Source of the DNA: Trypanosoma brucei
Lineage: Eukaryota
Assembly: GCA_000002445.1 (NCBI GenBank)
Contig: AE017150.2
Coordinates: 1,129,949-1,193,948 of the forward strand
Direction of reading: 5' to 3'
Length of the DNA stretch: 64,000 nt
Every line of letters begins with the position of its first letter. Position 1 is the first letter of the stretch. The position numbers and the translations under genes are program-made. Of this stretch, positions 1-50,933 are shown in pieces. Below the pieces are notes generated by a model that worked only from the letters and a program-made list of their open reading frames with translations, ran no database searches and had not been told where the DNA came from.

Positions 1-3000
1 AGCAAGTATATGCGTGTACACGTAATGTTTTTTAAATGTAAAGGTGACGCAAAGAGAAGTGTTAGTGGGTTACAAACGCACCACGTAAGGTACGATACGG
101 CGGAGTTCTGCAAGCTTGTACCATGACAGTATTTCACTATTTTGTTTATTAGCATAGACTTCCCCTCTAAAATATGATTTTTATGGTAAGGGTCGTAAAT
201 TGTGAGATTGTATTTACGGTCTCACTCATTGGTGCAAACCTCCGACACACTTTACTTCCTACCTTTCTTAATGGTCCACAATATTTGTGTGAAAGAAAGA
301 GTTATTCTTCAGCTTGTGGGATGCCTTGTGTTTTCTGCCCATATGTGTAAAGAACATTTAAAAGAAAAATAATAAACTGTTAAAGCTTAAGGTAACTTCA
401 GCCTTACTTGTTTTTCATCTCTTTTTTTCCCTTTGTAACTGTGCTATGGTGTTACGGATATTTGTGCCTAAGTTAGGAAAGCTGTGTGGATTTGTTTTTT
501 TCTATTTCATGTCTTTCGTTGTATACCACACGCCTGCTTATGTTTTCCCATATGTGTACGCCTGTAGATAACAGTGTGGGAGTTTACTCCGTGACTTTTT
601 CTCATAAATGTCGGGAGGCAAATGATTAAAGTATTTTGTTTAATATGTCTGTATATGTTTGTCTGTTTATGTGTGTGTGTGTTTGATATGTTCAGCAATA
701 TGTTTAGATTATCCAATAATAACTTCTCTTCCTTTCTATCTCTTATACAGTTATGTTGTTTACTTGTGACTGTTTTACTTTCAGGAAGGTATATAAATTA
801 AGCTGAAGCAACGTTATGTTTATTTGTGTATTAGGCGCATGAATTCATTTTCTAGCAGATGATATATGCGTGAACGCATGTGTTTAACTTTATAATGTCT
901 TATACTAAAAATGTATTCAAATATTGCCATGTGAATACCTTGTGAGGCTTATTGTATTTTTGTGTCGTGAAATAGTCAAGTAGTTGCTGTGTAACTTTTG
1001 TGTTTTTTCTTAAATAGATAATGTGTGTTTCCTTAGTTTAAAATATTTAATAAATGATTTGACAGCTGCTTGCATGTGAGAGTTTCATTCCTCTTCTTTG
1101 CTTAAAAATGTGCAGAGACTGGAATCCTTCATATAAATGATGTGAAATGCATAACTTATAAATTGCATTTCCACTTTCACATATTGTAATATTATTGAGT
1201 ATCAAAAAGGAAATGATGAATCATGTAATAGGAAGTTATTCACAACATGTTAATAGAGCAATTTAACTTCGCAGCTATCACAGAACAGGCTTTTTATTGT
1301 AATGCTCAATTGTGGAATAAGACATGCTTTATGAATTCTTGAGGATGGAGCGTTGTAATATTTTTAAAAGTAAACATAAGTAAACAAATAAATAAACAGT
1401 TTATCATTTTTGTATTTGCCTTCATAATCACTATAAGCTAAGCTATTAGTCTATTAGAAATAATTAATATGGCTACTAGTAAGGCAAAAGACGAGAAATA
1501 AGAAATTAATTTATAGGAATGATTTGATAGTTTGAAGGGTGTGTAATTATCATGTCTCTTATACTAATGACGGATTATGCTAGAGAGAATGTGATTTGTG
1601 AGGTATTTGTGATTCTCTGAAGTGATACAGCGGTGCATGGGAACTCGTCGTAAGGATAAAAAAAATAAATAATGTGCGGTATGTAATTTTTAAACCTCAC
1701 ATTGATGAGGTTATGAGGCATAAAATAACTCTTGCCATTTTCCCAACGTGGCCAACAGTCCAAGAACTAGTGTAGTACTGCAGTAATGATACAGTGATGT
1801 TAAATTGAAAGCGAAAAATAAATATGAATGGCGTAAAAAGGGGGAAGGAAGTAGTGATGGTGGCGTAATCGATTTGGATTGTTTTTCGTGACAAATTCTC
1901 TACATTCAATGATTCTAGAGGAAACAAGTACGTACCATAGCAGTGGTTACTGTGTTTCCATAAGGAGTAAGTTATATTTACTGGAAAATGTGGTATTAAG
2001 AAATGTTATATGTGAGTAGCAATATACCTCAACACAGAGATGTACGCTCATGTAATCACTACACAAAAACCTTCCGAATGTTTTGAACGCGTTGACCGGA
2101 TTGATGCGTCTCTCCAACCTTGAGTTGAAATGCACAACCCTTGAGTGTTGAGTTGGGATACATATTTTTAGATGTCACTAGAGCTTGATGTGTGGAATGA
2201 AACTCTAGAGCTCATGCATATGGCTAATGCTTATCATCGTCGTAACTTCCATGTTGGTACGATGATGTGCAGTTTGCTGTTAGTGATAGCCTTCAGTGGA
2301 TTGTATGGTAGGTGGTGTTTCTCTATTTGTTTTCTGTCACAGATGGCAATGGAAGCGTCGACTATCTTTTGTATTACTCAGAAGGGAAAATTCTCTTTTT
2401 AAGTAATGGTAATGTTGAATCGTTGATAAAATCAACGGAATTATCCATAAGCTAGTTTTAATTGGAGGAAAGGAGAATAGGAGAACTGCCCACTTTGATG
2501 TGTTGCGGACAAAGAAAAGTGAGTGGTATGCATATTTTAGAACCCAGTATTTTTCTTTCTTATCCGATGTACTTCCCTAATGTTTGGATCTGAGAAATAC
2601 CTAATGATGATTAATACGGTTAGAGTTAGGGCATTCTTTTGTGATGCTGAATATCGCATCTATTGATAACAGCAATCGATACGCCATACTCAAACATAAA
2701 TGAATTCTCACACATTAACGCTGCTTCTGGTATCGCCAACCGTTATGTTCAATAGCTCGTTACGTGGGAGCATGAGTGGATGTAATGATGGATGCCGCTT
2801 CATCAAAGGCAGCTGCGTGATACTTATCTCAGAATATGTCAATGGTGTCGTATTATAGCCAAGTTTAAGTCTAATAATTAATCATAGTGATGTGTGTGGA
2901 AAAAGTGAGATTGTACCATTGCAGTGAGTGAACCGCTTTGCTTGGGACGTATTGCATTGTGCTGTGTGATTAAGCGCCGAGTTTGTTCACATCATACGTA

Positions 3001-4983
3001 TGATATTTAGTTACTGTCAACCCACCGGATTGGTGTGGGAGGAGTGTAAGGCATCGTGCGAGCATGGGACATATGTTTCATCGCAGTGTCACGGAGGTTT
3101 TAAGGTATGGTGGAATATGGGAGGTGGATTAGCTATAGATCTCTTTGTGCCTCCATCCCTTCGTGCTATGCTTTTTCTTTTCCCCTGAAACTGATACAGT
3201 CTGGGGAGGCAGTGTGCTCAAGCTTCGCTAAGTTTTTGGAAGCAGGACTCACGACCCATCCCCCACTGTGTAATGTATGATGACCAGATTTGTTCTGAGG
3301 GAGCATCAAACCAATCGTGTACGATGGAAGTGTAGAATAGGAAGTAAAGGAAAGTGTATTATTATGTGCAGATGCGTATGAGGCACTGCTCACAACACCT
3401 AAAGAAAGCAAAGTCACTCCTGACGGTTTTGATCATTTTATCAGTGTATCACAATCTAATCATTTCTGCTGTAGAAGGTTCGTTGCATAGTTGTGTGTAT
3501 TCTGCTTTCAGAGTTGACATTCTGTCACTTACCACTGTGGCGAGTGATGACGATGATATCGTCGGCTTTCCGGTATGGAAGGAAGTATCACTTTACTCTT
3601 CTGCTCGTATAAGCGTGCTTTGTTCATCCGTGGAGCGGTGTTGTTATTGAAAAGGGGATGCTGAGTAGAGTGGTGACTCAACACTTTTTCTTGTACTGAA
3701 GACATACTAAGAGGTTCTGTCAGCAGGACAGACTTGCGGTGGCCAGGTGGTTTCGCGACCTCAGGGACAACTTCCATATTGCACAAGGGGAACTTCTTCG
3801 TTTTGAGGTGACAGGGCGCATGCTAGTGTTGGGATATCTGTACATTGGAATGGCAAGGTCTTCCAGGGAAGGAAGGGAGGTGTATAAACCAGTGAAGGGC
3901 TGCACAGGTACTGTGTCAGGTATGAAAGTGATAGAGGTCTCTAAGGAAGTGTCAGATGTGATTATACTCGGCAAGAGGTTGCTGCTCAAGGTTTTGATTA
4001 TATACTTTCCGAAACAATCAAATGTTGCGAAAATTACGTTGAAAGAAAGTTTAGGGGGAGCAATGGGATAAGGGAAACCCTCACTGGATTGTTTTGTCGG
4101 GTATACAGCATGATAAGTGGAAGGTTTGGTGGAGAAGCACGCAGGTACACCACACCCAATTGGTGGGAGAGTAGTAATGGCCGGGAGTATTTACCGTGAG
4201 TGACAACTCCAACAATGGATGCTAAGTAGTTAATGTTGAAATGTTTTAAGAGATTAGAGAAAGGAATGACTAAATGGTTGTAGGTACGTAAATTGTGGGA
4301 AGCACTGAGGGAAAATGATGTAATGATGCGACGGACCAAGGGACTCGAATACCCAATATATTACAAGAAACGCTACTATTGAGTTGGGTGCAGAAACAAG
4401 TGAGAGACAAGCTGTTTGGGTAGTTGAAGTATCGACCACTGGGAAGGGTGAAGCGTGGGCAGGAAGGATCATCAAATCTTATCCTCCTTTCAGTTAATAT
4501 GACTGAGGAAGCGAGAAAAGAAAAAGAATGGTTGTGAAAAGAGAAATTAGCGAAAAAGAATTAGTAGAAGCAATTGTGGCGTCAAAAAAGACGTTAAGGG
4601 TAGCGTTAGTACAAATAGAAAAGCAGCCAACTCTAAAAAATTGGTTTCCGACGTAAAGGAAGCGGGGACAGGTGAATAAAACTATTTAATTTGTACCAGT
4701 TTACATGTATGAAAATGACCTCATATGTGTGTGATTTGCTCCTGTTAACTCGGTGAACATCGGAACTGACACGTTGCTCTGTGCTATTGTAGCAATGCAC
4801 TCCAGTGTGATATCACTGGAACTATGAAACCTTATATTTCTTATGGCGTTGTATCAGTGCTTCCACTATGGTATCATTATGTTAACGTGAGCAGTATATT
4901 GTCACGTGGTGGACAACATGTCAACTAGTTTGTTTAAACTGTTGCTCTCTTGACAGTTTGTAGTTCGTATCACTCTGTTGTGT

Positions 4984-5132
4984 GCTTTTTTTTGTCTTGT
5001 TTATTCCCCTGAGATATTACTGGTAAGTCCCCCTTTATCCTTATTTTTGCATCTGCACTGGCTGTTTAAGCGGAACCCTTCCAATTATTAGGCACAAAAC
5101 GGTACATATATATATATTACAAGAAAGCAACA
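4984..5132 (+). promoter_or_regulatory. Polypyrimidine tract with downstream AG dinucleotides; candidate trans-splice acceptor region for the dioxygenase mRNA. The same region occurs at ~15508-15656 and ~26050-26201.
   Basis: A long C/T run (ttttttgtcttgtttattcccct...ccctttatccttatttttgc) is followed by AG sites within ~100 nt of the ATG. This is the kinetoplastid trans-splicing signal architecture. Confidence 0.55.
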
Positions 5133-6110
5133 GTGTGTAATTTAGAAACCATGACACGCGCCTCGCTTCCTGTTATTGATGTTTCGCCCCTATTTGGTGG
5201 CGAATCCGCAGAAAAGGAAAGGGTCTCCAAGCAGATTGATAATGCATGCAGGACATGGGGCTTCTTCTACATTGTGGGACATCCGATTCAGCAGGAGCAG
5301 ATTGACAAAGTACTTAAGTTAGCTGATACTTTTTTCTCTCTTCCTATGGAGGAGAAGCTCAAATTGGACGTTCGCAAGGGTAGACTTTATCGTGGTTACA
5401 CTGCCCCTGGAGTAGAGGAAGCTGATGTAGGGAAGGTTTACACGTACGAGACCTTTACGACGGGATACCATCTTCCTAAGCACCATCCAGACGTCATGGC
5501 AGGCAAACCGCTCCGAGGACCGAATATCCACCCCACTCAAGTGAGGGGATGGATGGAGGGTATGGAAGGTCATTACCGCGATATGTGGGCACTTGCGCTT
5601 GTCCTCCTGCGCGCTATGGCGCAAGCTATCGGTTTGCAGGAAGATTTCTTCGACTCCAAGTTTATGGATCCCCTTTGTGAATTGAATATAAAGCACTACG
5701 TTCCCTTATCTCAAACGAAAGAAGAAACTACTTTGCTCATTGAGCACAGCGATTTCGGTGTTATGACGTTACTCTATCAAGACGCTTCAGGTGGCTTGCA
5801 AGTACGTGATAGTTCCGGAGAGCTGATGGATGTGCCACCTATTGAAGGAAGTTTTGTTGTCAACCTTGGAGACATGATGGAGATGTGGACCAATGGCCAA
5901 TACCGTTCCACAAAGCATCGTGTGGTAGCCACAGACAAGGAACGGTACTCCATGCCTTTCTTTTGCAATCCCAATCCGAATGTCATCGTCAAGTGCCTCG
6001 ACAACTGTCATTCGGAGGAGAATCCACCAAGGTACCCTCCAGTGCGGGCTGTTGATTGGATTTTGAAGCGATTCGCGGAGGCATATGGGAAAGATTACTC
6101 AAAAATGTAG
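5133..6110 (+). CDS. 2-oxoglutarate/Fe(II)-dependent dioxygenase, IPNS/ACC-oxidase-like ('iron/ascorbate oxidoreductase family'), copy 1, 325 aa.
   Basis: A 325-aa ORF is present in three near-identical copies. It has the H-x-D iron-binding motif (IEHSDFGVMTLL), a distal His and a 2OG-binding R-x-S signature (WTNGQYRSTKHRVV). This resembles the ACC oxidase/flavonol synthase family motif NGKYKSVxHRV. The N-terminus LPVIDVSPL is typical of the DIOX_N domain. The true start may be the Met at 5151 (MTRASLPV...). A polypyrimidine tract lies upstream. Confidence 0.9.
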   Translation: MCNLETMTRASLPVIDVSPLFGGESAEKERVSKQIDNACRTWGFFYIVGHPIQQEQIDKVLKLADTFFSLPMEEKLKLDVRKGRLYRGYTAPGVEEADVGKVYTYETFTTGYHLPKHHPDVMAGKPLRGPNIHPTQVRGWMEGMEGHYRDMWALALVLLRAMAQAIGLQEDFFDSKFMDPLCELNIKHYVPLSQTKEETTLLIEHSDFGVMTLLYQDASGGLQVRDSSGELMDVPPIEGSFVVNLGDMMEMWTNGQYRSTKHRVVATDKERYSMPFFCNPNPNVIVKCLDNCHSEENPPRYPPVRAVDWILKRFAEAYGKDYSKM

Positions 6111-8384
6111 GAGTGGTTCCTAGTTTGCATTTCTTTTAGCATTTGCTTTATCAAGAATGGTATCAGGCCCTGCAATTAGTAGTTGTTTTTCAGACGTGGC
6201 TGACTTACATATGCGTAGTATCTGTCGTAATGCAAAAAGTTCTGTGATTTAAAATGTGGGTGAAGACAGTACGGTAACGTATCTAGTCAGAATGAATATA
6301 TTTCACTCACTCTTTATTTTCAATGTAGGGAATTGTTAAAGGGGTAATAATATTTCTTTCACCTTTCCTCTTCCTTTTTTTTAATTGACATCTTTGTAAT
6401 GAATGCTGTAAGTCCATCTTTTCTCATACTTTGATATCTTCATCTATTTCCTTATTACATTGAATAATGCATTAACATCTTCATTGCGATGACAACTGAA
6501 GTATTCTGACAAGCAATAGGTGTATGCTATTGTATGTTAGTTTATGCTGCAACAGAGTTCTCCTTGGAAATGCTTGTCTTTTTTTTTCACTTTGAGGGGG
6601 TTCTACAATTGTCTTTCCCCATTCTATTCTAAGGGTTAATTACGCATTAGAAATGCTACCAGTCACTTCAGAGGTATTCCTTCTTACACAAGTATTATTT
6701 TGATGCGATCTCATGCAAGGATAATGGAGGTAAATGGAGAATGAAACAACTCACATTCTCCACCCACCCAATGGAGAGCATACGTTTTACCATGGAAGTC
6801 GCGCTTGAAGTATCTCCCCAAGTAGAGCAAACTAATGAGGAATTAGCACCTAAGGGCTGCGTTGTTAAATATTTTGAAAGAGTGGGGGTTCGTACGTGAA
6901 GGATAAGGGATTTTGAGGGTGCTTACTCTTATTGTGTTTTTAATTTTTTTTTTGAAAAGGGGGGTGGTGGCCAATTTTATTATGTCACCCGACGAATGGA
7001 ATTGCTTTGTACCACGCTGTTTGTGTTTGTTACATATATTGGTAAGAAATAATGTTTTTTTATGTGAATTTCAATGCGTTTGATGTTTTTTGCCACCGCA
7101 CTTATGTTGAGTTTGTGCAATTTCTTTTCCCTCCATGCTGAACATACCATTCTCTATTATTTTCTTATCTTTCATTGTTTCAGCTTTTCAGGGGAAACAC
7201 ATGCATACCCACGAGATGGAATACACTAAACGACACGTAACACTGTGGGAGAATGTTATAAATGCATGCAGCCCAATACTTGAGAAATGTGTATTTTCTA
7301 CACCTTAACATCAATTTTTTTTTTTGTAAAGGACAAACTCACTGAGTGTTTAGTGACTGCGCTTCTTCAAACTTTTCTCCCTCAAGGCGTATTATGCAGT
7401 TGCAGAGAGTCATTTGTTTTCTGCTCCTTCTCCGCTTGCTAATGATTTGTGTTTATGCGTGTTGCTTCCTTTTTTATATTGTAAGTAATAGAAGACAAAA
7501 AAGGGGATATTACATATTACATATTTTATTTTGTATGTTAGCATGGTTGCATAATTTATTCTGCTGTAGAGGCGTGTGTTATGGATTGTAGTATTTGGAG
7601 AAGTTGTTCGACTTAAAGTTATAAAAGCTTGCCCTGTGTGTGATGGATTTTTAATTTATATAAACTTGTTTAACTTTACATTAGAATATAAATTTATTTA
7701 TTGTCATTTAAATAGTTCCCCCATATGAGAAAACTAAATGAACACGTATATGCACGTATATGTATATTTATATTTGCATATTTGTTGTTTATGTATATTA
7801 TATCTGAGTAATGTTGGTAAGGTAAGAAAACGGCTGTGTAATAAATCATTTTTATTTGGTATGCTTTGAGTGCGCGCGCGTGGGTTCATTAGTTCTATTA
7901 TCAGAAAAGGAAACTGCAATAATTGTTTCATTATTAAAAGTTCTTCATGACTCGTGTTTTTAAGTTTAGCATTTTGCTATTACTCAAATCATGTGAATTA
8001 AGGGAGGACTCATATCAGTATCATATGATGATATTTGAAACAATTTAGAGACGCCTGATATTACTCAATACTCTAACTCTTTTTTTTCCTTTCATATCCA
8101 TTGCATTTATATTGTGATATGATAAGTTGATTTGTGTTAGCATTCAAATGCAGCATTGTTATTATTAATATTAACTTCCTTAAAGGAAATTAATTCGAAA
8201 GGAATGTTATTGTAAAAGGATTCAAATTGCAAGTAGTTATTCAGATAATGTTAATAATTTATACACAATTTTATATTTATTGTAGTTGTAGTAGTGTGCG
8301 TATTTAAACAAAGGTACCACTAATTTTGTAATTACTCAATAGTTATAATGACACAATTCTATTTCTTGATAATTTGAGTCCCTG

Positions 8385-8503
8385 AATTTGTTTTTCCCTT
8401 CATATTTTTCACTTTGCTTTTCTTTTCTTTCATTTCATATATGTTTTTTCTTTTTGTTATATAGACAAGCTTATTATATTATTATTTCAAGTAATTCAAA
8501 AAG
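8385..8503 (+). promoter_or_regulatory. Polypyrimidine tract and AG acceptor region upstream of the transporter ORF. The same region occurs upstream of 19026 and 29572.
   Basis: A ~75 nt run (tttttcccttcatatttttcactttgcttttcttttctttcatttcatatatgtttttctttttgt) is followed by atagACAAG, 35-40 nt before the ATG. It is conserved in all three units. Confidence 0.55.
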
Positions 8504-9895
8504 ATGGCAATGCTTGGTTTCGAGTCGACAGCTGAATTTTTTGTCTATCTCACCTTCATCTTTTTTGGGATGTCGGTGATGAATGTGACGAATGCCATTT
8601 ACTCAGTCCCTGATTTTTTTTCTGATTATTATAAATTTGTTAAAAATGAGGAAAAAGCGAAACCTGTCAATGCATCGTTCTGGAAGCACATGTTCACGTA
8701 TTATAATGTTGTTGTGTTTACGATGCAAGTGGTTTTGGAGGCTTTTATGCTCACACCATTGGGCCGACGGATTCCTATTAGTTGGCGTCTCATCTTTGGA
8801 CTCACAATTCCTATGGGTGAGATCATTGCAATTTTAGTGATTCCTGCTGTTGGAGGAAGTGAAAATTGTGCAATTGCAACTGTTATGATGGTTGCTTTTG
8901 TTGGTGGTATTTCCAAAACACTTTGTGACTCCAGCAATGCTGCACTTGCGGGACCTTTTCCGACTAAATTCTATGGTGCCATCGTGTGGGGCCTTTCCGT
9001 GTCCGGTATGATTACTTCATTTATGGCTATTGTCATTAAAGCATCGATGAAGGATAGTTTTGAAAGTAAGAGAGTTCAGTCCCAAATATACTTTGGATTA
9101 GTCATGCTTCTTCAGGTGGTTGCATGCGTGCTTCTTGTCCTTCTGAGGAAAAACCCATATGCCATTAAATATGCTGCAGAATTTAGGTATGCTGCGAGGA
9201 AGGATGGAAAGACAGATGATGGCGAAGATGAAAACGATGCAAAGGGAACAGGGCCAGCAGACGAAGATGGGTATCCTGATGAAAAAGAGAATAAGAATGT
9301 ATTGAATGCTGATATTGATCCAGATAAGATGAAGGATACGGATCAGGTTGAAGGCACTACCAACGTTCAGCAAATGCTTGATGCGAGTGTTATGGTTGTG
9401 GTGAAACGTATTTGGCCCATGTTACTTTCATGCTTTTTTGTGTTCTTTGCGACACTTCTTGTATTTCCTGGTGTATTCTTTGCTGTTAAAGATGGATTAA
9501 ATGTTAAAAATGGATGGTACTTTACTATTGTCATTGCCATGTTCAACTTTGGTGATTTCCTTACGAGGCTTCTTCTTCAGTTCAAGCAGCTGCACCTGTC
9601 TCCACGCATGGTTATGATTGGTTCATTTGCACGTGCACTTTTGATAATTCCGCTTTCATTATGTGCAGCTGGTACCATTCCTGGTATATGGCTTCCCTAC
9701 ACCGTTTCTCTCCTTTGGGGTCTTACGAACGGTTACTTTGGTGGTTTAACAATGATTTATGGACCACGTACGGGATCCCTCACCACAGCGGGTCAACGCT
9801 CTCTTGCTGCCATTTCTACAAATGTATCACTACTTTCGGGTCTCTTTGTTGGTGCTATGTTTGCATTGGCTGTTAAGGAGGGACTTCCTGAATAA
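8504..9895 (+). CDS. Equilibrative nucleoside transporter (ENT family), TbNT2-cluster-like purine nucleoside transporter, paralog 1, 463 aa.
   Basis: The N-terminus MAMLGFESTAEFFVYLTFIFFGMSVMNVTNAIYS is characteristic of T. brucei NT/AT ENT proteins. The ORF has ~11 predicted hydrophobic segments. Between the sixth and seventh of these is a large acidic cytoplasmic loop (RKDGKTDDGEDENDAKGTGPADEDGYPDEKENK). The gene alternates in tandem with the oxidoreductase gene. Confidence 0.92.
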   Translation: MAMLGFESTAEFFVYLTFIFFGMSVMNVTNAIYSVPDFFSDYYKFVKNEEKAKPVNASFWKHMFTYYNVVVFTMQVVLEAFMLTPLGRRIPISWRLIFGLTIPMGEIIAILVIPAVGGSENCAIATVMMVAFVGGISKTLCDSSNAALAGPFPTKFYGAIVWGLSVSGMITSFMAIVIKASMKDSFESKRVQSQIYFGLVMLLQVVACVLLVLLRKNPYAIKYAAEFRYAARKDGKTDDGEDENDAKGTGPADEDGYPDEKENKNVLNADIDPDKMKDTDQVEGTTNVQQMLDASVMVVVKRIWPMLLSCFFVFFATLLVFPGVFFAVKDGLNVKNGWYFTIVIAMFNFGDFLTRLLLQFKQLHLSPRMVMIGSFARALLIIPLSLCAAGTIPGIWLPYTVSLLWGLTNGYFGGLTMIYGPRTGSLTTAGQRSLAAISTNVSLLSGLFVGAMFALAVKEGLPE

Positions 9896-26201: not shown

Positions 26202-27179
26202 GTGTGTAATTTAGAAACCATGACACGCGCCTCGCTTCCCGTTATTGATGTTTCGCCGCTATTTGGTGGCGAATCCGCAGAAAAGGAAAGGGTCTCCAAG
26301 CAGATTGATAATGCATGCAGGACATGGGGCTTCTTCTACATTGTGGGACATCCGATTCAGCAGGAGCAGATTGACAAAGTACTTAAGTTAGCTGATACTT
26401 TTTTCTCTCTTCCTATGGAGGAGAAGCTCAAATTGGACGTTCGCAAGGGTAGACTTTATCGTGGTTACACTGCCCCTGGAGTAGAGGAAGCTGATGTAGG
26501 GAAGGTTTACACGTACGAGACCTTTACGACGGGATACCATCTTCCTAAGCACCATCCAGACGTCATGGCAGGCAAACCGCTCCGAGGACCGAATATCCAC
26601 CCCACTCAAGTGAGGGGATGGATGGAGGGTATGGAAGGTCATTACCGCGATATGTGGGCACTTGCGCTTGTCCTCCTGCGCGCTATGGCGCAAGCTATCG
26701 GTTTGCAGGAAGATTTCTTCGACTCCAAGTTTATGGATCCCCTTTGTGAATTGAATATAAAGCACTACGTTCCCTTATCTCAAACGAAAGAAGAAACTAC
26801 TTTGCTCATTGAGCACAGCGATTTCGGTGTTATGACGTTACTCTATCAAGACGCTTCAGGTGGCTTGCAAGTACGTGATAGTTCCGGAGAGCTGATGGAT
26901 GTGCCACCTGTTGAAGGAAGTTTTGTTGTCAACCTTGGAGACATGATGGAGATGTGGACCAATGGCCAATACCGTTCCACAAAGCATCGTGTGGTAGCCA
27001 CAGGCAAGGAACGGTACTCCATGCCTTTCTTTTGCAATCCCAATCCGAATGTCATCGTCAAGTGCCTCGACAACTGTCACTCGGAAGAGAATCCACCAAG
27101 GTACCCTCCAGTGCGGGCTGTTGATTGGATTTTGAAGCGGTTCGCGGAGGCATATGGGAAAGATTACTCAAAAATGTAG
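26202..27179 (+). CDS. 2OG/Fe(II) dioxygenase, copy 3, 325 aa. It carries V227 and I312, plus a unique D271G (gac to ggc at 27003-27005).
   Basis: Same ORF as 5133-6110. The substitution pattern is a mosaic of copies 1 and 2. Confidence 0.9.
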   Translation: MCNLETMTRASLPVIDVSPLFGGESAEKERVSKQIDNACRTWGFFYIVGHPIQQEQIDKVLKLADTFFSLPMEEKLKLDVRKGRLYRGYTAPGVEEADVGKVYTYETFTTGYHLPKHHPDVMAGKPLRGPNIHPTQVRGWMEGMEGHYRDMWALALVLLRAMAQAIGLQEDFFDSKFMDPLCELNIKHYVPLSQTKEETTLLIEHSDFGVMTLLYQDASGGLQVRDSSGELMDVPPVEGSFVVNLGDMMEMWTNGQYRSTKHRVVATGKERYSMPFFCNPNPNVIVKCLDNCHSEENPPRYPPVRAVDWILKRFAEAYGKDYSKM

Positions 27180-29571
27180 GAGTGGTTCCTAGTTTGCATT
27201 TCTTTTAGCATTTGCTTTATCAAGAATGGTATCAGGCCCTGCAATTAGTAGTTGTTTTTCAGATATGAATGATTTACATATGCGTAGTATCTGTCGTAAT
27301 GCAAAAAGTTCTGTGATTTAAAATGTGGGTGAAGACAGTACGGTAACGTATCTAGTCAGAATGAATATATTTCACTTACTCTTTATTTTCAATGTAGGGA
27401 ATTGTTAAAGGGGTAATAATATTTCTTTCACCTTTCCTCTTCCTTTTTTTTAATTGACATCTTTGTAATGAATGCTGTAAGTCCATCTTTTCTCATACTT
27501 TGATATCTTCATCTATTTCCTTATTACATTGAATAATGCATTAACATCTTCATTGCGATGACAACTGAAGTATTCTGACAAGCAATAGGTGTATGCTATT
27601 GTATGTTAGTTTATGCTGCAACAGAGTTCTCCTTGGAAATGCTTGTCTTTTTTTTTCACTTTGAGGGGGTTCTACAATTGTCTTTCCCCATTCTATTCTA
27701 AGGGTTAATTACGCATTAGAAATGCTACCAGTCACTTCAGAGGTATTCCTTCTTACACAAGTATTATTTTGATGCGATCTCATGCAAGGAGAATGGAGGT
27801 AAATGGAGAATGAAACAACTCACATTCTCCACCCACCCAATGGAGAGCATACGTTTTACCATGGAAGTCGCGCTTGAAGTATCTCCCCAAGTAGAGCAAA
27901 CTAATGAGGAATTAGCACCTAAGGGCTGCGTTGTTAAATATTTTGAAAGAGTGGGGGTTCGTACGTGAAGGATAAGGGATTTTGAGGGTGCTTACTCTTA
28001 TTGTGTTTTTAATTTTTTTTTTGAAAAGGGGGGTGGTGGCCAATTTTATTATGTCACCCGACGAATGGAATTGCTTTGTACCACGCTGTTTGTGTTTGTT
28101 ACATATATTGGTAAGGAATAATGTTTTTTATGTGAATTTCAATGCGTTTGATGTTTTTTGCCACCGCACTTATGTTGAGTCTGTGCAATTTCTTTTCCCT
28201 CCATGCTGAACATACCATTCTCTATTATTTTCTTATCTTTCATTGTTTCAGCTTTTCAGGGGAAACACATGCATACCCACGAGATGGAATACACTAAACG
28301 ACACGTAACACTGTGGGAGAATGTTATAAATGCATGCAGTCCAATACTTGAGAAATGTGTATTTTCTACACCTTAACATCAATTTTTTTTTTTGTAAAGG
28401 ACAAACTCACTGAGTGTTTAGTGACTGCGCTTCTTCAAACTTTTCTCCCTCAAGGCGTATTATGCAGTTGCAGAGAGTCATCTGTTTTCTGCTCCTTCTC
28501 CGCTTGCTAATGATTTGTGTTTATGCGTGTTGCTTCCTTTTTTATATTGTAAGTAATAGAAGACAAAAAAGGGGATATTACATATTACATATTTTATTTT
28601 GTATGTTAGCATGGTTGCATAATTTATTCTGCTGTAGAGGCGTGTGTTATGGATTGTAGTATTTGGAGAAGTTGTTCGACTTAAAGTTATAAAAGCTAAC
28701 CCTGTGTGTGATGGATTGTTAATTTATATAAACTTGTTTAACTTTACATTAGAATATAAATTTATTTATTGTCATTTAAATAGTTCACCAATATGAGAAA
28801 ACTAAATGAACACGTATATGCACGTATATGTATATTTATATTTGCATATTTGTTGTTTATGTATATTATATCTGAGTAATGTTGGTAAGGTAAGAAAACG
28901 GCTGTGTAATAAATCATTTTTATTTGGTATGCTTTGAGTGCGCGCGCGTGGGTTCATTAGTTCTATTATTAGAAAAGGAAACTGCAATAATTGTTTCATT
29001 TTTAAAAGTTCTTCATGACTCTTGTTTTTAAGTTTAGCATTTTGCTATTACTCAAATCATGTGAATTAAGGGAGGACTCATATCAGTATCATATGATGAT
29101 ATTTGAAACAATTTAGAGACGCCTGATATTACTCAATACTCTAACTCTTTTTTTTTCCTTTCATATCCATTGCATTTATATTGTGATATGATAAGTTGAT
29201 TTGTGTTAGCATTCAAATGCAGCATTGTTATTATTAATATTAACTTCCTTAAAGGAAATTAATTCGAAAGGAATGTTATTGTAAAAGGATTCAAATTGCA
29301 AGTAGTTATTCAGATAATGTTAATAATTTATACACAATTTTATATTTATTGTAGTTGTAGTAGTGTGCGTATTTAAACAAAGGTACCACTAATTTTGTAA
29401 TTACTAAAAAGTTATAATGACACAATTCTATTTCTTGATAATTTGAGTCCCTGAATTTGTTTTTCCCTTCATATTTTTCACTTTGCTTTTCTTTTCTTTC
29501 ATTTCATATATGTTTTTCTTTTTGTTATATAGACAAGCTTATTATATCACTATTTCAAGTAATTCAAAAAG

Positions 29572-30960
29572 ATGGCAATGCTTGGTTTCGAGTCGACAGC
29601 TGAATTTTTTGTCTATCTCACCTTCATCTTTTTTGGGATGTCGGTGATGAATGTGACGAATGCCATTTACTCCAATTATAATTTTTTTTCAGAGTATTAT
29701 AAGTTTGTTAAAAAGCAGGAAAAAGCCGAACCTGAGAATGAATCGTTCTGGAAGCACATGTTCACGTATTATAATGTTGTTGTGTTTACGATGCAAGTGG
29801 TTTTGGAGGCTTTTATGCTAACACCATTGGGCCGACGCATTCCTATTAGTTGGCGTCTCATCTTTGGACTCACTATTCCCATGGTAGAAATCATCGTTAT
29901 TTTAGTGATCCCTGCTGTTGGAGGAAGTGAAAATGGTGCAATTGCAACTATGATGATGGTTGCTTTTGTTGGTGGTATTTCCAAAACACTTTGTGACTCC
30001 AGCAATGCTGCACTTGCGGGACCTTTTCCGACTAAATTCTATGGTGCCATCGTGTGGGGACTTGCCATATCCGGACTGATGACCTCATTTTTGGCTATTG
30101 TTATACAAGCATCGATGGACAGCAGTTTTACAAGTAAAAATACCCAATCCCAAATATACTTTGGATTAGTCATGCTTCTTCAGGTGGTTGCATGCGTGCT
30201 TCTTGTCCTTCTGAGGAAAAACCCATATGCCATTAAATATGCTGCAGAATTTAGGTATGCTGCGAGGAAGGATGGAGTAACTGGTGATCGCGCAGATGGT
30301 GAATTTGATGCAAAGGGAACAGGGCCAGCAGACGAGAATAGATATCCTGATGAAAAAGAGAATAAGAATGTATTGAATGCTGATATTGATCCAGATGATA
30401 TGAGGGATACAGATCAGGTTGAAGGCACTACCAACGCTCAGCAAATGCTTGATGCGAGTGTTATGGTTGTGGTGAAACGCATTTGGCCTATGTTGGTCGC
30501 TTGCTTCTTTGTGTTCTTTGCGACACTTCTGGTGTTCCCTGGTGTATTTATAGCGGCGAAGACAGGCGATACTAGTGGTTGGTACTTTACTGTTGTCGTT
30601 GCCATGTTCAACTTGGGTGATTTCTTGTCTCGTCTGGTGCTGCAGTTCAAGCAATTGCATGTGTCTCCGCGCATGGTTATGATTGGTTCATTTGCACGTG
30701 CGTTGCTGATAATTCCACTTTCGCTATGTGCTGCAGGAACCGTTACCGGTGTATGGCTTCCTTATATTGTTTCTCTCCTTTGGGGTCTTACGAATGGTTA
30801 CTTTGGTGGCCTTTCAATGATCTATGGACCACGTACGGGATCCCTCACCACAGCGGGTCAACGCTCTCTTGCTGCTATTTGCATTAATGTGGCTCTTCTT
30901 ATGGGACTTTTTGTTGGTGCTATGTTTGCATTGGCTGTTAAGGAGGGACTTCCTAAATAA
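29572..30960 (+). CDS. ENT nucleoside transporter, paralog 3, 462 aa. This is the most divergent copy, with a different large loop: RKDGVTGDRADGEFDAKGTGPADENRYPDE.
   Basis: It shares the N-terminus and the TM framework. Its extracellular loop 1 (YSNYNFFSEYYKFVKKQEKAEPENESF) is distinct, as is the TM7-8 region (AAKTGDTSGWYFT). Its 3' flank diverges from that of the other units. Confidence 0.9.
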   Translation: MAMLGFESTAEFFVYLTFIFFGMSVMNVTNAIYSNYNFFSEYYKFVKKQEKAEPENESFWKHMFTYYNVVVFTMQVVLEAFMLTPLGRRIPISWRLIFGLTIPMVEIIVILVIPAVGGSENGAIATMMMVAFVGGISKTLCDSSNAALAGPFPTKFYGAIVWGLAISGLMTSFLAIVIQASMDSSFTSKNTQSQIYFGLVMLLQVVACVLLVLLRKNPYAIKYAAEFRYAARKDGVTGDRADGEFDAKGTGPADENRYPDEKENKNVLNADIDPDDMRDTDQVEGTTNAQQMLDASVMVVVKRIWPMLVACFFVFFATLLVFPGVFIAAKTGDTSGWYFTVVVAMFNLGDFLSRLVLQFKQLHVSPRMVMIGSFARALLIIPLSLCAAGTVTGVWLPYIVSLLWGLTNGYFGGLSMIYGPRTGSLTTAGQRSLAAICINVALLMGLFVGAMFALAVKEGLPK

Positions 30961-31030
30961 ATGCTCAAAAATTGTAAATAAACCATTTAATGTCGATCTT
31001 TTAATAAAATGAAAAATGAACCCCATGCTG

Positions 31031-31880
31031 GTATCAGCTAGGAGTGGTTTGAATAATGCAACAAATAAGGGTTTGAAGAGAAGATATATAAGTTAAAAAA
31101 TAAGGAGAAATGCCAGATAATGAATTAGATGACATGTAAAAGGAAGCAAGCGTATGCGTGTACAATTTAAGCTGTTTGGAGGGGGGACTGTAGTAAACGT
31201 GTATATACGTGTATGATTATCTTTTGTCTTTCGCACAGTGTTTCCAGACATAAATTCTCCGTCTTCTGGGGAATTCTGTGAAGGAAGAAAAATGACGGTT
31301 TGTTGGAGTTGTGTAGTTATTATTATTAAACTTTCATCATGTTTTCATTGACTCCCTACAAATAACATAATTTGCTTCAACAATTTGTTTAGCTTTTGTA
31401 ATTTTAAAAGAAGGAAATGATGATGCATTTCCATTCATTGATTTAAATTTAATTTTTGTTCCATCTTGAACTAATTTCCTCTTTTTAAAAAACAAAAATC
31501 AGCAAAGAGATGAGAATAAAATATACAAAAGGTAGAAAGCTGAATGAACTACAAAAAAAATATTAAATAAAACACATATACATATTTATAATATGTGTTC
31601 TTTCTGCACAAAAAAAATTGTATTAGTTACAATAATAAAAATAGTGAAGCCAGCAGGAAGTGATAATTACAATTTTCAACTCATCCCCTCTTGCCTATCT
31701 CACTATTCCCTTTCTTTTTCAGAGAAAATAACTAAAAAAGTAAGTAAACAAGAGAGAGGATAGTAATAAATAAAATGAAATCAACAATACAATATTTTAA
31801 GGGAAAATTTGATTTTACTTTTTCTTTACTTTTCACTGTTTCTGTTTCTTGATTACTTTTACTTCCTTTCATTTCTTTCT
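31031..31880 (+). other. A unique ~850 bp AT-rich segment downstream of transporter paralog 3. It replaces the ~435 bp found at the equivalent position in units A and B (10040-10475); the unit C equivalent is ~20580-21015.
   Basis: After the conserved motif at 31023-31050 the sequence has no counterpart in the other units. Homology resumes at ~31880 (ttattcccatgaccgtgctatggtgttacgg, matching 10475 and 21014). The segment is probably the paralog-specific 3'UTR. Confidence 0.7.
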
Positions 31881-34800
31881 TTTTATTCCCATGACCGTGC
31901 TATGGTGTTACGGATATGTGTGTAAGTGAGGAGTGTTGTGTGGATTTGCTTCTATTATTGTTTACTTGCCTTTGGTTGTATACCACACACCTGCTTATGT
32001 TTTCCCATATGTGTACGCCTGTAGATAACAGTGTGGGAGTTTACTCCGTGACGTTTTCTCATAAATGTCTAGAGGCAAATGATTAAAGTAATTTTTTTGT
32101 TTAATGTATATCTGTATATGTTTGTCTGTTTATGTGTATGTGTGTTTGTGTGTACGTATTTGACATGTTCAGCAATATGTTTAGATTATCCAATTATATC
32201 TTTTCTTTTCTATTTTCTTATATTGTTTACTTGTCACTGTTTTACTTTCAGGAAGGTATATAAATTAAGCTGAAGCAACGTTATGTTCATTTGTGTATTA
32301 GACACATGAGTTTATTTCCAAGCAGATGATATATGCGTGAACGCGTGTGTTTAACTTTATAATGTCTTATACTAAAGATGTATCCAAATATTGCCATGCT
32401 AATACCTTGTGAGGCTTATTGTACTTTTGTGTTGTGAAATAGTCAAGTAGTTGCTGTGTAACTTTTGTGTTATTTTTTAGATAATGTGTGTTTTCTTAGT
32501 CTAATATCTTTAATAAATGATTTGACAGCTGCTTGCATGTGAGGGTTTCATTCCTCTTCTTTGCTTAAAAATGTGCAGAGACTGGAATCCTTTATATAAA
32601 TGAAGTGAAATGCATAACTTATAAATTGCATTTCCACTTTCACATATTGTAATATTATTGAGTATCAAAAGGGAAATGATGAATCATGTAATAGGAAGTC
32701 ATTCACAACATGGTAATAGAGCAATTCATCTTCGAAGCTATCACGGAACAAGCTTTTTATTGTAATGCTTATTTGTGGAATAGCTCATGCTTTATGAATG
32801 CTTGAGGATGGAGCGTTGTAACATTTTTAAAAGTAATATAAGTAAACTAGCAACCAAATTATCGTTTTTGTTTCTTCCTTCATAATCACTATAAGCTAAG
32901 CTATTAGTCTATTAGCAATAATTAATATGACTACTAGTAGGGCAAAAGATGAGAAATAAGAAATTAATTTATAGGAATGATTTGATAGTTTGAAGGGTGT
33001 GTAATTATCATGTCTCTTATACTAATGACGGATTATGCTAGAGAGAATGTGATTTGTGAGGTATTTGTGATTCTCTGAAGTGATACAGCGGTGCATGGGA
33101 ACTCGTCGTAAGGATAAAAAAAATAAATAATGTGCGGTATGTAATTTTTAAACCTCACATTGATGAGGTTGTGAGGCATAAAATAACTCTTGCCATTTTC
33201 CCAACGTGGCCAACAGTCCAAGAACTAGTGTAGTACTGCAGTAATGATACAGTGATGTTAAATTGAAAGCGAAAAATAAATATGAATGGCGTAAAAAGGG
33301 GGAAGGAAGTAGTGATGGTGGCGTAATCGATTGTTACTGTGTTTCATGACAAATTCTCTACATTCAATGATTCTAGAGGAAACAAGTACGTACCATAGCA
33401 GTGGTTACTGTGTTTCCATAAGGAGTAAGTTATATTTACTGGAAAATGTGGTATTAAGAAATGTTATATGTGAGTAGCAATATACCTCAACACAGAGATG
33501 TACGCTCATGTAATCACTACACACAAAAAAGTTCTGAAAGTTTTGAACGCGTTGAGCGGATTGATACGTCTCTCCAACCTTGAGTTGAAATGCGCAACCC
33601 TTGAGTGTTGAGTTGGGATACATATTTTTAGATGTCACTAGAGCTTGATGTGTGGAATGAAACTCTAGAGCTCATGCATATGGCTAATGCTTACCGTGGG
33701 CAAAACTTGTCGATGTTGGTACGATGATATGCGATTTGTTGGCAGTGATAGCTTTCAGCGGATTGTATGGTAGGTGGTGTTTTTTTTTCTGCCACAGGCG
33801 GCAATGGCAGTGTTGACTAATTTTTGAATTACTCAGAAGGGAAATTTCTCTGTTTAAGTGATGATCATGTTGAATCGTTGATAAAATCAACGGAATTATC
33901 CATAAGTTAGTTTTAATTGGAGGAAAATGAAATAGGAGAACTGCCCACGTTGATGTGTTGCGGACAAAGAAAAGTGAGTGGTATGCATATTTTAGAACCC
34001 AGTATTTTTCTTTCTCATCTGATGTGCTTCCCTAATGTTTGGATCTGAGGAATACCTAATGATGATTAATGCGGTTAGAGTTAGGGCATTCTTTTGTGAT
34101 GCTGAATATTGTATCTATTGATAACAACAATCGATACGCCATACTCAAACATAAATGAATTCTCACACATAAACGCTGCTTCTGGTATCGCCAACCGTTA
34201 TGTTCAATAGCTCGTTACGTGGAGCATGAGTGGATGTGACAGTGAATGTTCCTTCATCAAAGACAGCTGCGTGATGCTTAACTCAGAATATGTCAATGGT
34301 ATCGTATTATAGCCAAGTTTAAGTTTAATAATAATAGTGATGTGTGTGGGAAAAGTGAGATTGTACCATTGCAGTGGGTGAACCGTTTCGTTTGGGACGT
34401 ATTGCATTCTGCTGTGTGATTAAGCGCCGAGTTTTTCTGCAAATATACGTATGATATTTAGTTGCTGTCGACCCGCCGAATCGGTGTGTGGTTAGTGTAA
34501 AGCATTATGCGAACATAGGTTAGTAATGCACAGTGTTTAGAAGGCGAATGTGCCATTCAAGTAACCTTGATTTATACGTAACGTTTCTTACCTTTTTGTG
34601 GTGTTTCACTGTGATCATTCCGAGCGATGTAGTTTATGCTGTTAATGTCACTCAAAGCAATCTGATATTTTTTATGATTGTCACTGCAGCATCTCTTTCT
34701 ATAAGTTTCTTTACTTTTTTTTAAAAAAGGCATCATTATAAAGCTTGAAAAAGATGTCATAGCTCTTTAACCCTTTACACCCTCTCAAAATATGCCATGA

Positions 34801-36499
34801 AAAATGTAAAACTTGCCAGTTGTTTTCACGGTTGCGGCTCTGTAAGAAAGTGAATATTTCACACTTTGGAGAGCTAATTTTGCTACGAAGTGGTTAAGGC
34901 CACCTATTCGCAGTGGCAGCCCTTGAGGTGAAAACCACATATACTAACGTATCGACAGCAGTAATGAGGACATGTGTCAGCATGGGACGTATGTTTCACT
35001 ACAGTGTCACAGAGGTTTTAAAGCACAGTGGGCACGGGAGGTGAATTAGTTGTAGATCTCTTTGTGCCTTAACCTTTCGTGCTATTCTTTTTTTTCTCTC
35101 TGGAACTGATACAGTCTGGGGAGGCAGTGTGCTCAAGCTTTGCTAAGTTTTTGGAAGCAGGACTCACGACCCATCCCCCACTGTGTAATGTATGATGACC
35201 AGATTTGTTCTGAGGGAGCGTCAAACCAATCGTGTACGATGGGCGTGTAGAACAGGAAGTAAAGGAAGGTGTGTTATTATATGCAAATGCAGATGAAATA
35301 CTGCTCACAACACCTAAAGAAAGCAAAGTCACTCCTGACGGTTTTGATCATTTTATCAGTGTATCACAATCTAATCACCTTTGCTGCTGTAGAAGGCTCA
35401 TTGCATAGTTGTGTGTATTTTGCTTTCAGAGCTTGAGACAACCAGTCACTTACCGACCACTGTGGAGAGTGATCACGATGATGTCGTCGGCTTTCCTGTA
35501 TGGAAGGAAGTATCATTTTGCTCTTCTGCTCGCGTAATTGTGTTCCTTTGTGTATCCGTGGAGTAGCGTTGTTATTGAAAAGAGGGATGATGAGTAGAAT
35601 GGCGACTCAACACTTTTTCTTGTACTGAAGAAATACCAAGAGTTTTTTTCAGCAGGACAGACCTGCGGTGGCCATGTGGTTTAGATACCTCAGGGACAAC
35701 TTCCATATTGCACAAGGAGAACTTCTGCGTCTTGAGGTGGCATGGCGCATGCTAGTGTTGGGATATCTGTACATTGGAATAGCAAGGTCTTCCAGGGAAG
35801 GAAGAGGGATACATAAGCCAGTGAAGGGCTGCACAGGTGCTGTGTCAGGTGTGAAGGTGATAGATGGCTCTAAGGAAGTGTCAGATGTGATTATACTCGG
35901 CAAGAGGTTGCTGCTCAAGGTTTTGATTATATACTTCCCGAGACGATCAAATGTCGCGTAACTTACGTTGGAAGAAAGTTTAGGGGGAGCAATGGGATGA
36001 GGGAAGTCCCCACTGGATTGTTTGGTCGGATATACAACATGATAAGTGGAAGGTTTGTTGAAGAAGAACGCAGGTACACCACATCCAATAGGTGAGAAGG
36101 CAGTAATGGCCGTCTGAATGGTGTAGGTGTTGATTCCACAAATGATTACCTCTCTGATAAATTTGAGATATAGGAAAGTATAAGGTGAATTATATCTAGC
36201 TGCGTTGAGGAATGCCAATATGAGTATTGTTTTGTAGTTACTTCAATTTTTCAAGTGATCGCGAAAAAAAATTTTGTTCTTGCTGTTGATGTTATTTTTG
36301 GGGCAACTACCATCTACTGGAGAACCCTTATATTTAATGTTTTACCTACAAATAACAAACTAAGATGTAACAATCATCAACAAGGAAGTTGAGGTCACAA
36401 AGACACAGCACTATGGAGAAGGGCGAAGATGGGGATGCAAGGTTAATGGGCTACGTGAGGAGTTTTTAGAGCACCCGTGGCAGCAGCTGTGCGTGTGTT

Positions 36500-43300: not shown

Positions 43301-43379
43301 AAACAACCGTCAAATTCACATCAGCCGAAAATTGTAGCGTTGCTGTGACTCTTTCTGGGACTCGCTTGCCAAGTGACAC
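40344..43379 (-). mobile_element. Degenerate ingi/L1Tc-clade non-LTR retrotransposon remnant (DIRE-like). It may extend down to ~38500 and up to ~43900.
   Basis: The - strand ORF at 43062-43379 encodes an APE-type endonuclease fragment (VVGADFNSHHELWNP, VSAYFPRKS). Collinear lower-coordinate ORF fragments (42253-42597, 41038-41340, 40715-40999, 40344-40619) have reverse-transcriptase-like sequence (GYYLRLKVGSAKYADAED is a degenerate GxPQGS...YADD region). They are interrupted by multiple stops and frameshifts. The order of endonuclease then RT on the - strand is consistent. Confidence 0.7.
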
Positions 43380-43977
43380 AGTTCTACTCCCACTCTATCT
43401 TTCACTAAAATTAAAACGCAACCCCTATGTGCTGTTTTTTCTAAACCTACATGCTGGTATCCACTATTTTAAGCACAGTAGATTCCACCGGGGCCACGCT
43501 CCTATCCTGCAATAGGCAGAAGACCACATAATCCTCTTGAAGCCGCCTCTCCAAGGCAAGTCGTTTTACTTGAGGTTACACCCCAGTGTTCCACTTGACT
43601 CCTTGAATCATGGGAAGAGGATTCTTCTCAACGTCCAGTTAATAAGCAGCATGTTTCGCTTCACATGTAGCAAAGCACGCTTGCACGTGCAGAGGAGCAG
43701 TCTAATATATTTTTTCACCCCAGAGTGCCGATTCTGCTGTTTGCTCCTTCTCTGATCGCCGAAAGCCTCTTTACCGCCACATTCCCGTCGGACTGGGTTT
43801 AATGAGGGCACTTGGCTTCTTTCTGGATAGAGTACTAGACCCTGGCGCAACGATGAGGTGACCGGCTTCACCAGGGAAATTTTCATAGTTTTTATAAAAT
43901 TGAACAAAAATCCTTTAAATTCTAAAATTCTACAAAGCCGATAAAAGCGAAAGAAATTGGAGCCAGTTGTTTGTTTA

Positions 43978-50802: not shown

Positions 50803-50933
50803 AAATATATCAATTTTAGAAAAGTTTTCTCGAAGTAGAAAATTTTATAAATTTCATAATTTTCTGAAAATCGAGAAAAATTCCTTAAAGTAATAAATTA
50901 AAAAAAGCAAGCCCACAAAAACAGTAGCCATAC

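Follow-up and report, generated by a model that had tools for sequence, protein, structure and literature searches.

The 64,000-nucleotide stretch of Trypanosoma brucei DNA analyzed here (the window) opens on a tandem array in which genes for a 2-oxoglutarate (2OG)/Fe(II) dioxygenase alternate with genes for nucleoside transporters of the ENT family. Why would an oxygenase be amplified together with a nucleoside carrier? The first 31 kb hold six long plus-strand open reading frames (ORFs), three for dioxygenases and three for proteins with the nucleoside-transporter domain PF01733, in the strict alternation that a reading of the letters without database searches (the sequence-only reading) had described. 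By exact-sequence look-up, all six proteins are identical to XP_951751-XP_951756 of T. brucei brucei TREU927 chromosome 2, where the enzyme is named 'iron/ascorbate oxidoreductase family protein' and the transporter 'adenosine transporter 2'. Positions 1-36112 comprise three units of about 10.5 kb, each a dioxygenase plus an ENT, with periods of 10,524 and 10,545 bp, and the tail of a fourth; a chance origin of a 10.5-kb repeat at ~99% identity is impossible. The array extends to the left beyond the window, and positions 1-5150 hold the tail of a preceding unit's spacer. On the right the repeat ends at 36112, where the 100% identity of 14035-14706 to 35441-36112 gives way to no similarity, within 1 bp of the end first proposed (36113). 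The locus is the distal half of the TREU927 chromosome 2 array, NT2-(ox-NT)x5 (NT, nucleoside transporter; ox, oxidoreductase), at the boundary between the chromosome core and a subtelomeric field of variant surface glycoprotein (VSG) genes, and its earlier attribution to the TbNT2 cluster was correct (the T. brucei TbNT2-NT7 cluster). Its features are:

1..5150, plus strand: spacer tail (NT-to-dioxygenase) of the preceding unit, with direct-repeat families D1-D9, 89-95% identical to the later spacers
5151..15674, plus strand: repeat unit 1, 10,524 bp, consisting of dioxygenase, 2.4-kb spacer, ENT and 5.8-kb spacer (unit alignment)
5151..6110, plus strand: dioxygenase copy 1, 319 aa, domains DIOX_N and 2OG-FeII_Oxy, ending in -SKM (XP_951751; Tb927.2.6230 by gene order)
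8504..9895, plus strand: ENT transporter, 463 aa (XP_951752, 'adenosine transporter 2'; TbNT5, Tb927.2.6240 by order)
8650..10400, plus strand: divergence island with 53-92% identity between copies, taking in the greater part of the ENT coding sequence and a 3' flank of ~0.5 kb (unit alignment, mosaic dS)
15675..26219, plus strand: repeat unit 2, 10,545 bp (unit alignment)
15675..16634, plus strand: dioxygenase copy 2 (XP_951753)
19026..20426, plus strand: ENT transporter, 466 aa (XP_951754; TbNT6 by order)
26220..36112, plus strand: repeat unit 3, cut off at the right array boundary, 36112 (unit alignment, boundary comparison)
26220..27179, plus strand: dioxygenase copy 3 (XP_951755)
29572..30960, plus strand: ENT transporter, 462 aa, the final array gene (XP_951756; TbNT7 by order)

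The longest dioxygenase ORFs begin with GTG at 5133, 15657 and 26202. These are the 325-aa proteins of the sequence-only reading; the ORFs exist, but the annotated protein has 319 aa and starts at an ATG (5151, 15675 and 26220). The three transporters match PF01733 at E 1e-30 to 7e-32, are assigned to ENT/SLC29 and to the NT2-NT7 group, and are 87-90% identical to one another. The T. brucei NT2-NT7 group is said, after work of Sanchez et al. in 2002, to carry out P1-type transport of purine nucleosides, with or without hypoxanthine. In the long spacer of unit 1 there is no further plus-strand ORF of at least 80 aa, apart from one of 92 aa that overlaps the transporter gene at its end. Minus-strand ORFs lie at 14243-14713 and 24785-25255 (156 aa) and at 35649-36218 (189 aa, running past the repeat boundary). 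We asked whether the antisense 156-aa ORF might be a third gene of the unit and decided against it, as it is without a Pfam match; it is probably spurious and persists only through the near-identity of the spacers.

The arrangement and the joint bloodstream-form up-regulation of its genes were annotated and published in 2009-2010. Jensen et al. (2009; PMC2771046) found both gene sets commoner in bloodstream than in procyclic forms, the oxidoreductase mRNAs by 3.3-13.2-fold, and described the array oxidoreductases as functionally uncharacterized (PMC2771046), in agreement with the sequence-only reading. Bloodstream-form up-regulation of Tb927.2.6180 was confirmed by Veitch et al. (2010), cited as protein-level support. 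Jackson et al. (2010; PMC2854126) counted six NT and five ox genes in T. b. brucei versus three and two in T. b. gambiense and gave recombination breakpoints for these arrays. Our literature search returned no later functional characterization of the array dioxygenase after Jensen et al. (2009), and a search for the biochemistry of T. brucei thymine-hydroxylase-like proteins returned JBP papers only. To the published description this analysis adds a profile of how the unit diverges along its length, the enzyme's paralogy and synteny, its bacterial context and a link to purine stress in Leishmania.

How uniform is the unit? Outside the divergence island, alignment of the three units gives 97-100% identity across the repeat, the 2.4-kb and 5.8-kb spacers included. 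The spacers equal or exceed the dioxygenase coding sequences in identity, and the transporter coding sequences are the exception. The three window dioxygenases differ by 4-7 nucleotides (dS 0.01-0.025) and at three residues in 319-aa numbering, 231 (I/V/V), 262 (D/D/G) and 304 (I/V/I), which are the three amino acid differences counted earlier. ENT pairs show dS of 0.25-0.32 and dN/dS of 0.23-0.30, and their dS is mosaic, blocks at dS 0 adjoining blocks at dS 0.7-1.0. With an omega of 0.23-0.30, we reject positive selection on the transporters at the gene level. The simplest reading of these alignments is that the array has been homogenized by gene conversion and that older ENT alleles were kept under purifying selection. 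The most diverged part lies directly 3' of the transporters (9900-10400, 20430-20950 and 30960-31400), where copy 3 is 53% identical to copies 1 and 2 and indels occur. This flank is presumably the start of the 3'UTR, and its divergence may underlie copy-specific regulation.

Because the entire unit, spacers included, is near-identical, the dioxygenase is not specially conserved. The sequence-only reading had set near-identical dioxygenases against diversifying transporters and had argued from their co-duplication to a joint function. The contrast holds for the three window copies, but the spacers are just as identical, and the two upstream array dioxygenases (of the Tb927.2.6180 type) are only 81-82% identical to the window copies; with the whole unit homogenized, the argument from co-duplication is weak. 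Such homogenization is also what would be seen under passive hitch-hiking, in which a dioxygenase paralog landed beside a subtelomeric ENT and the amplifying unit carried both, the enzyme acting on a non-purine substrate, perhaps, like other IPNS-type (isopenicillin-N-synthase) enzymes, on a compound of the guanidino or amino-acid kind or on a small aromatic. Bloodstream up-regulation could likewise be regional, and Jensen et al. (2009) write of a 'cluster of similarly regulated mRNAs' (PMC2771046). This is a serious rival, to which we give a sizeable probability, though one clearly short of even. Against it, the array copies are under purifying selection. Comparison of the window copies with the T. 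b. gambiense 6180-type dioxygenase gives dS 0.62 and dN/dS 0.25 (here and for chromosome 9 the copies compared are those of T. b. gambiense, not of TREU927), and because of these values the array dioxygenase is under selection, with two old subtypes. The T. b. gambiense chromosome 2 locus keeps the gene order of TREU927 with fewer units: ABC transporter, NT, ox, NT, ox, NT. The dioxygenase subtype beside the last transporter differs between T. b. gambiense and TREU927, which therefore points to recombination within the array. In the T. b. gambiense array (FN554965.1, 846-878 kb) we observed 6180-type dioxygenases only, mutually identical and ending in -PKM instead of -SKM.

The array dioxygenase combines DIOX_N (PF14226; E 1.4e-33) with 2OG-FeII_Oxy (PF03171; E 5.4e-27), both above gathering scores, and is a member of the isopenicillin-N-synthase (IPNS; DOXC-like) subfamily of the 2OG/Fe(II) oxygenase superfamily. 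Its first identification as a 2OG/Fe(II) oxygenase was right, the type being that of IPNS and the fold group that of thymine-7-hydroxylase (T7H). Its iron triad (H199/D201/H256) and the RxS motif that binds the 2OG C5-carboxylate (R265/S267) are invariant across 27 kinetoplastid and bacterial sequences. A confident AF2 model (pLDDT 89.3, pTM 0.90) has the IPNS-type double-stranded beta-helix, and Foldseek returns a group of about equal matches (TM 0.78-0.86): 9ovh, P. aeruginosa 6jyv, Caulobacter 3oox, SpoC, Neurospora crassa T7H and IPNS. The top PDB sequence match is 9ovh, a reconstructed ethylene-forming enzyme (EFE) ancestor, at E 7.8e-59. That the nearest solved structures include this ancestor, tropolone and ring-expansion enzymes and IPNS favors the carried-along reading with its non-purine substrate. 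No NCBIfam family model was matched by the T. brucei or the bacterial dioxygenase. A suggested likeness to AlkB was not borne out: DIOX_N and 2OG-FeII_Oxy are the only domains at E <= 0.001, and no AlkB or FTO chain occurs among the best 60 of 74 PDB sequence matches (E <= 0.001) or the top 50 fold matches.

Is the enzyme then a genuine thymine-7-hydroxylase, converting thymine to 5-carboxyuracil in a fungal-type thymidine salvage? Kinetoplastid orthologs carry the name 'putative thymine-7-hydroxylase', and the family includes Tb927.7.7500, called TLP7 or 'thymine-7-hydroxylase-like'. N. crassa T7H is a clear homolog (E 2e-40, ~29-30% identity, TM 0.82-0.84), and its stacking Phe and the Tyr/Phe beside HxD have likely counterparts here. 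By motif spacing, F271 (RxS + 4), invariant in the family, would correspond to the base-stacking F292; at the residue after HxD (the Tyr217 position), where T7Hs allow Y, F or W, the array copies have F and the family has Y. The equivalences were taken from motif spacing and the 9ovh HMMER alignment, and the residue roles in T7H from PMC4787775. Yet T7H ranks only seventh among distinct PDB sequences and is structurally no closer than IPNS, SpoC, 6jyv or 3oox, while uncharacterized Pseudomonas proteins are far nearer, at 50-60%. Moreover, R190 of the N. crassa enzyme binds the 2OG C1-carboxylate and substrate, and its mutants are nearly inactive (PMC4787775); the array copies lack an equivalent Arg. 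The genomic and regulatory context set out below is purine, not pyrimidine. We consider thymine hydroxylation highly improbable, and for the kinetoplastid proteins 'thymine-7-hydroxylase' is a similarity label at the level of fold: the sequence-only reading's 'thymine-7-hydroxylase-like' stands for the fold and fails for orthology.

The R190 position is Arg in the family ('FRMIHYP') except in the chromosome 2 copies, which have Asn ('ELNIKHYV'), and in the chromosome 9 copy, which has Thr. In both groups a new Lys appears two residues on, in the same strand ('SVFRMIHYP' to 'CELNIKHYV' in the array). The motifs HHRGYG, KETFDMG, SVFRMIHYP and CGxHTDYG are altered in the chromosome 2 and 9 copies and kept in those of chromosomes 5 and 7, T. 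vivax, T. cruzi and Leishmania. Loss of a conserved active-site Arg and of several near-invariant motifs, a long branch in the neighbor-joining tree and a copy number that differs between subspecies could all mean that the array copies have lost their activity or are in decay, and are carried along and expressed but catalyze nothing. We judge this very unlikely, for the ORFs are intact in all copies, the ligands of Fe and of the 2OG C5-carboxylate are invariant, dN/dS is 0.25 over a dS of 0.62, expression is regulated, and the Lys gained in the same strand two residues from the lost Arg suggests remodeling. Because dN/dS is 0.25 despite the altered motifs, a remodeled active site in a derived paralog is the likelier outcome than decay, and the array dioxygenase looks catalytically functional, to which its confident IPNS-type model and its higher bloodstream-form mRNA also point.

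Where does the paralog come from? Three T. cruzi and two L. donovani assemblies place a single ortholog between a tubulin-tyrosine-ligase-like (TTL) gene and RIO1, followed by Sec23/24. In the neighbor-joining tree the kinetoplastid dioxygenases form one clade next to Pseudomonadaceae sequences, within which the chromosome 2 and 9 copies share a long branch beside a clade of chromosome 5/7 and T. vivax sequences. By these alignments the array copies are a fast-evolving, T. brucei-specific derived paralog and not the canonical ortholog. Neither the chromosome 9 nor the chromosome 7 copy could be accepted as the ancestral TTL-ox-RIO1 locus: the former is isolate-specific (Jackson et al., 2010; PMC2854126), and the T. 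b. gambiense chromosome 7 dioxygenase lies ~10 kb from a contig end near a receptor adenylate cyclase gene. In L. mexicana, CBZ24008 and CBZ24009 are two consecutively numbered, presumably tandem, copies; the L. donovani region has one.

The sequence-only reading had set synteny in related trypanosomatids as a check, with loss of the linkage counting against a link between enzyme and transporter. The loci examined come close to that outcome. No ENT was found by tblastn within 10 kb of the dioxygenase in the T. cruzi and L. donovani loci, nor within 10 kb at three T. vivax loci, and the one T. congolense contig, 12 kb long, has none either. A 192-kb T. vivax contig carries both an ENT and a dioxygenase, ~47 kb apart and on opposite strands. 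Since the pairing is absent at the other kinetoplastid loci examined, it arose in the T. brucei lineage. Both this absence and the mobility of the family, multi-copy in salivarian trypanosomes and found beside unrelated surface-protein genes, suit a passive passenger. In T. vivax and T. congolense we observed multi-copy dioxygenases beside ISG65/75-type genes and, at the T. vivax loci, a 341-aa signal-peptide protein as well.

The best matches outside kinetoplastids are all Pseudomonadaceae proteins of ~321 aa. Their identity with the array protein is 47-52%, and with the canonical kinetoplastid orthologs it reaches 55-62%. We surveyed 80 species-level Pseudomonadaceae genomes, whose ortholog is 47-51% identical to the T. 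brucei protein over residues 1-313; 77 or 78 loci had enough flanking sequence for neighbor counts. The Pseudomonas cluster runs in the order double-ATPase ABC protein, two BPD_transp_2 permeases, amidohydrolase, Bmp-family (PF02608) binding protein, dioxygenase, A_deaminase protein. The Bmp-family gene stands immediately upstream of the dioxygenase on the same strand at all 77 loci (median gap 144 bp), and an adenosine-deaminase-family gene immediately downstream at 62 of 78. Because the gene upstream of Bmp varies across genomes, the Bmp-dioxygenase pair has outlived local rearrangement. Within 8 kb of the dioxygenase are an 8-oxoguanine deaminase equivalog (53 of 80 genomes) and ABC permeases (57-59 of 80). 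In NCBIfam the amidohydrolase scores 703 bits against the 8-oxoguanine deaminase equivalog (cutoff 532), and the final gene 556 bits against adenosine deaminase (cutoff 419). Binding proteins of the Bmp/PnrA/NupN type with such operon architecture import purine nucleosides. The P. aeruginosa 'probable oxidoreductase' PA0147, between PA0146 and the adenine deaminase PA0148, we take to be the Bmp-linked dioxygenase; a literature search for PA0147 returned no paper. An Rfam scan of five Pseudomonas loci gave no match, hence no purine or 8-oxoguanine riboswitch upstream of the cluster. As side observations, an SDR oxidoreductase recurs in the cluster along with the 8-oxoguanine deaminase equivalog, and one locus with the Pseudomonas arrangement is labeled Gordonia (L055) and may be an assembly contaminant.

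A second line of evidence comes from Leishmania. Martin et al. (2014; PMC3937319) starved L. donovani of purines for 24 h and found that 'Oxidoreductase, LinJ.29.0260' had risen 10.3-fold in SL RNA-seq and 4.3-fold in qRT-PCR, which puts it with the most strongly induced mRNAs. Its protein was detected in starved cells only, and a luciferase reporter placed at the locus increased 5.8-fold; control is exerted at the mRNA and translational levels, as for the purine permeases, and induction occurs together with that of LdNT1-3, 3'NT/NU and XPRT (PMC3937319). LinJ.29.0260 also figures among the genes of a published study of lateral gene transfer in Leishmania. It is probably the Leishmania ortholog of the kinetoplastid dioxygenase, an identification based on the name 'thymine-7-hydroxylase' of LmxM.08_29.0251, the position of the L. 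donovani ortholog ~86 kb from the end of a 1.26-Mb contig, and the names of L. infantum proteins.

Several purine salvage enzymes are glycosomal. All three window dioxygenases end in -SKM, which fits the consensus [SAC][KRH][LM] of the type 1 peroxisomal targeting signal (PTS1). Among relatives, the T. vivax protein ends in -AKM, the chromosome 5/7 copies in -TKM and those of the T. b. gambiense array in -PKM; the Leishmania and Phytomonas proteins are without a PTS1. A 'thymine-7-hydroxylase', paralog not specified, is listed with glycosome proteome evidence and a PTS1 (PMC7237986).

What do these observations say about the array? Functional coupling to purine acquisition is the best-supported hypothesis, and we put its chances at about even. 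It is favored because two unrelated lines agree, the bacterial gene order and the purine-stress regulation in Leishmania. The sequence-only reading's suggestion that the enzyme acts on salvaged purines thus gains support from the Pseudomonadaceae Bmp linkage and the Leishmania induction, although the argument offered for it fails. With the T. brucei array itself, three independent lines tie the family to purine nucleoside acquisition, which counts against passive carriage. Of the roughly 9,000 genes of T. brucei about 15 encode ENTs, and to land next to one of these by chance would have a frequency of ~0.3%, a rough figure. Several points weigh on the other side. The bacterial census covers one family only, whose members are not phylogenetically independent, and the orthology of LinJ.29.0260 was deduced from its gene number and its place on the chromosome and not from its sequence. 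The ENT linkage is confined to T. brucei among the kinetoplastid loci examined, and since trypanosome transcription is polycistronic, lying side by side does not carry the logic of an operon. Whole-unit homogenization means that sequence identity says nothing specific about the enzyme. The top PDB match is from the EFE family, whose members use arginine, which leaves room for non-purine substrates. Finally, the array paralogs are altered at near-invariant motifs, the R190 equivalent having become Asn, so their substrate may differ from that of the canonical family.

We propose that unequal recombination amplified a 10.5-kb two-gene unit and that gene conversion keeps it uniform, with the transporter coding sequences alone escaping homogenization and retaining older selected differences. 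On this view the array dioxygenase is a functional, bloodstream-form-expressed, T. brucei-specific paralog of the kinetoplastid enzyme. The family would most likely take a freshly imported purine, as free base or nucleoside, and act on it by Fe(II)/2OG-dependent hydroxylation or oxidative demethylation. In trypanosomatids the salvageable purine pool may thereby be widened or tuned, probably inside the glycosome, and co-amplification with ENT genes would scale the dosage of enzyme and importer together in bloodstream forms. The anatomy of the array, its paralogy, the purifying selection, the intact catalytic residues and the bacterial gene neighborhood are shown by the data, with expression as published; what we infer is the class of substrate, a glycosomal home for the array copies and a functional tie to the transporters beside them. 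Taken as a whole (array amplification, a purine-acting enzyme family and dosage scaling), this is the best explanation, and we would give equal weight to its being right or wrong. More speculative, and in our estimate rather unlikely in its full form, is an orphan family of purine-processing oxygenases tied to nucleoside import three ways, by a Pseudomonadaceae operon, a Leishmania regulon and the T. brucei array. Such enzymes would convert non-salvageable purines (N-methylated or oxidized, from host nucleic-acid turnover) to salvageable ones, and the array paralog, with its Arg-to-Asn and Ile-to-Lys changes and its PTS1, would be retooled for a bloodstream-specific glycosomal substrate. Trypanosomatid purine salvage would then gain a step not known before.

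Trypanosomatids cannot synthesize purines, so salvage is essential, and these ENT carriers are a major entry route for purine-analog drugs. An enzyme co-amplified and co-expressed with the carriers in the bloodstream stage could be an unrecognized salvage or detoxification step. The array dioxygenase might also be a drug target, or might activate or inactivate prodrugs. Solving its function would also annotate an orphan gene present across many Pseudomonadaceae species.

Beyond the array boundary, a 306-aa plus-strand ORF (36854-37774) overlaps a 158-aa antisense ORF; it is without a Pfam domain, and its exact sequence is absent from the protein collection. At ~38000-43900 lies a convergent strand-switch between the plus-strand array and a minus-strand run of VSG genes, and GC skew changes sign. 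That run, at 43978-63627, consists of VSG genes and fragments (VSG_B, Trypan_glycop, Trypan_glycop_C), with apparently intact ORFs of 493, 487 and 520 aa among split ones, and is a subtelomeric VSG field abutting the array. A tRNA scan found no genes, Rfam gave no match in the window, and Tandem Repeats Finder, applied to 1-44 kb, reported no tandem repeats.

How does the locus compare with known systems? It is the published TbNT2-NT7/iron-ascorbate oxidoreductase array (Tb927.2.6150-6320; PMC2771046, PMC2854126), without any difference in sequence, and shares its alternation, bloodstream-form co-regulation and position beside the VSG field. Fungal T7H (N. crassa, PDB 5C3P-5C3S) resembles the array enzyme in its IPNS-type double-stranded beta-helix, N-terminal DIOX_N, C-terminal helix, Fe triad, RxS and a likely counterpart of the stacking Phe, and is the PDB match that acts on a free nucleobase; it is, however, not the nearest relative at ~29-30% identity, its R190 has no equivalent in the array copies, and the context of the array is purine, not thymine. 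In the Leishmania purine-stress regulon (PMC3937319) the dioxygenase is co-induced with purine transporters, which parallels ox/NT co-expression in bloodstream T. brucei. There the gene is single-copy (two tandem in L. mexicana), without ENT linkage and without a PTS1, and the coupling is regulatory, not positional. The Pseudomonadaceae Bmp-linked oxygenase has the same domain pair and ligands as the array protein and is coupled to the gene of a Bmp-family (nucleoside-type) importer, whereas the array copies depart from it at family-invariant motifs. The bacterial gene is grouped, operon-like, with purine deaminases and an ABC importer, and the T. brucei partner is a eukaryotic ENT; since the importer partners differ, the coupling of this oxygenase to nucleoside import arose independently in the two.

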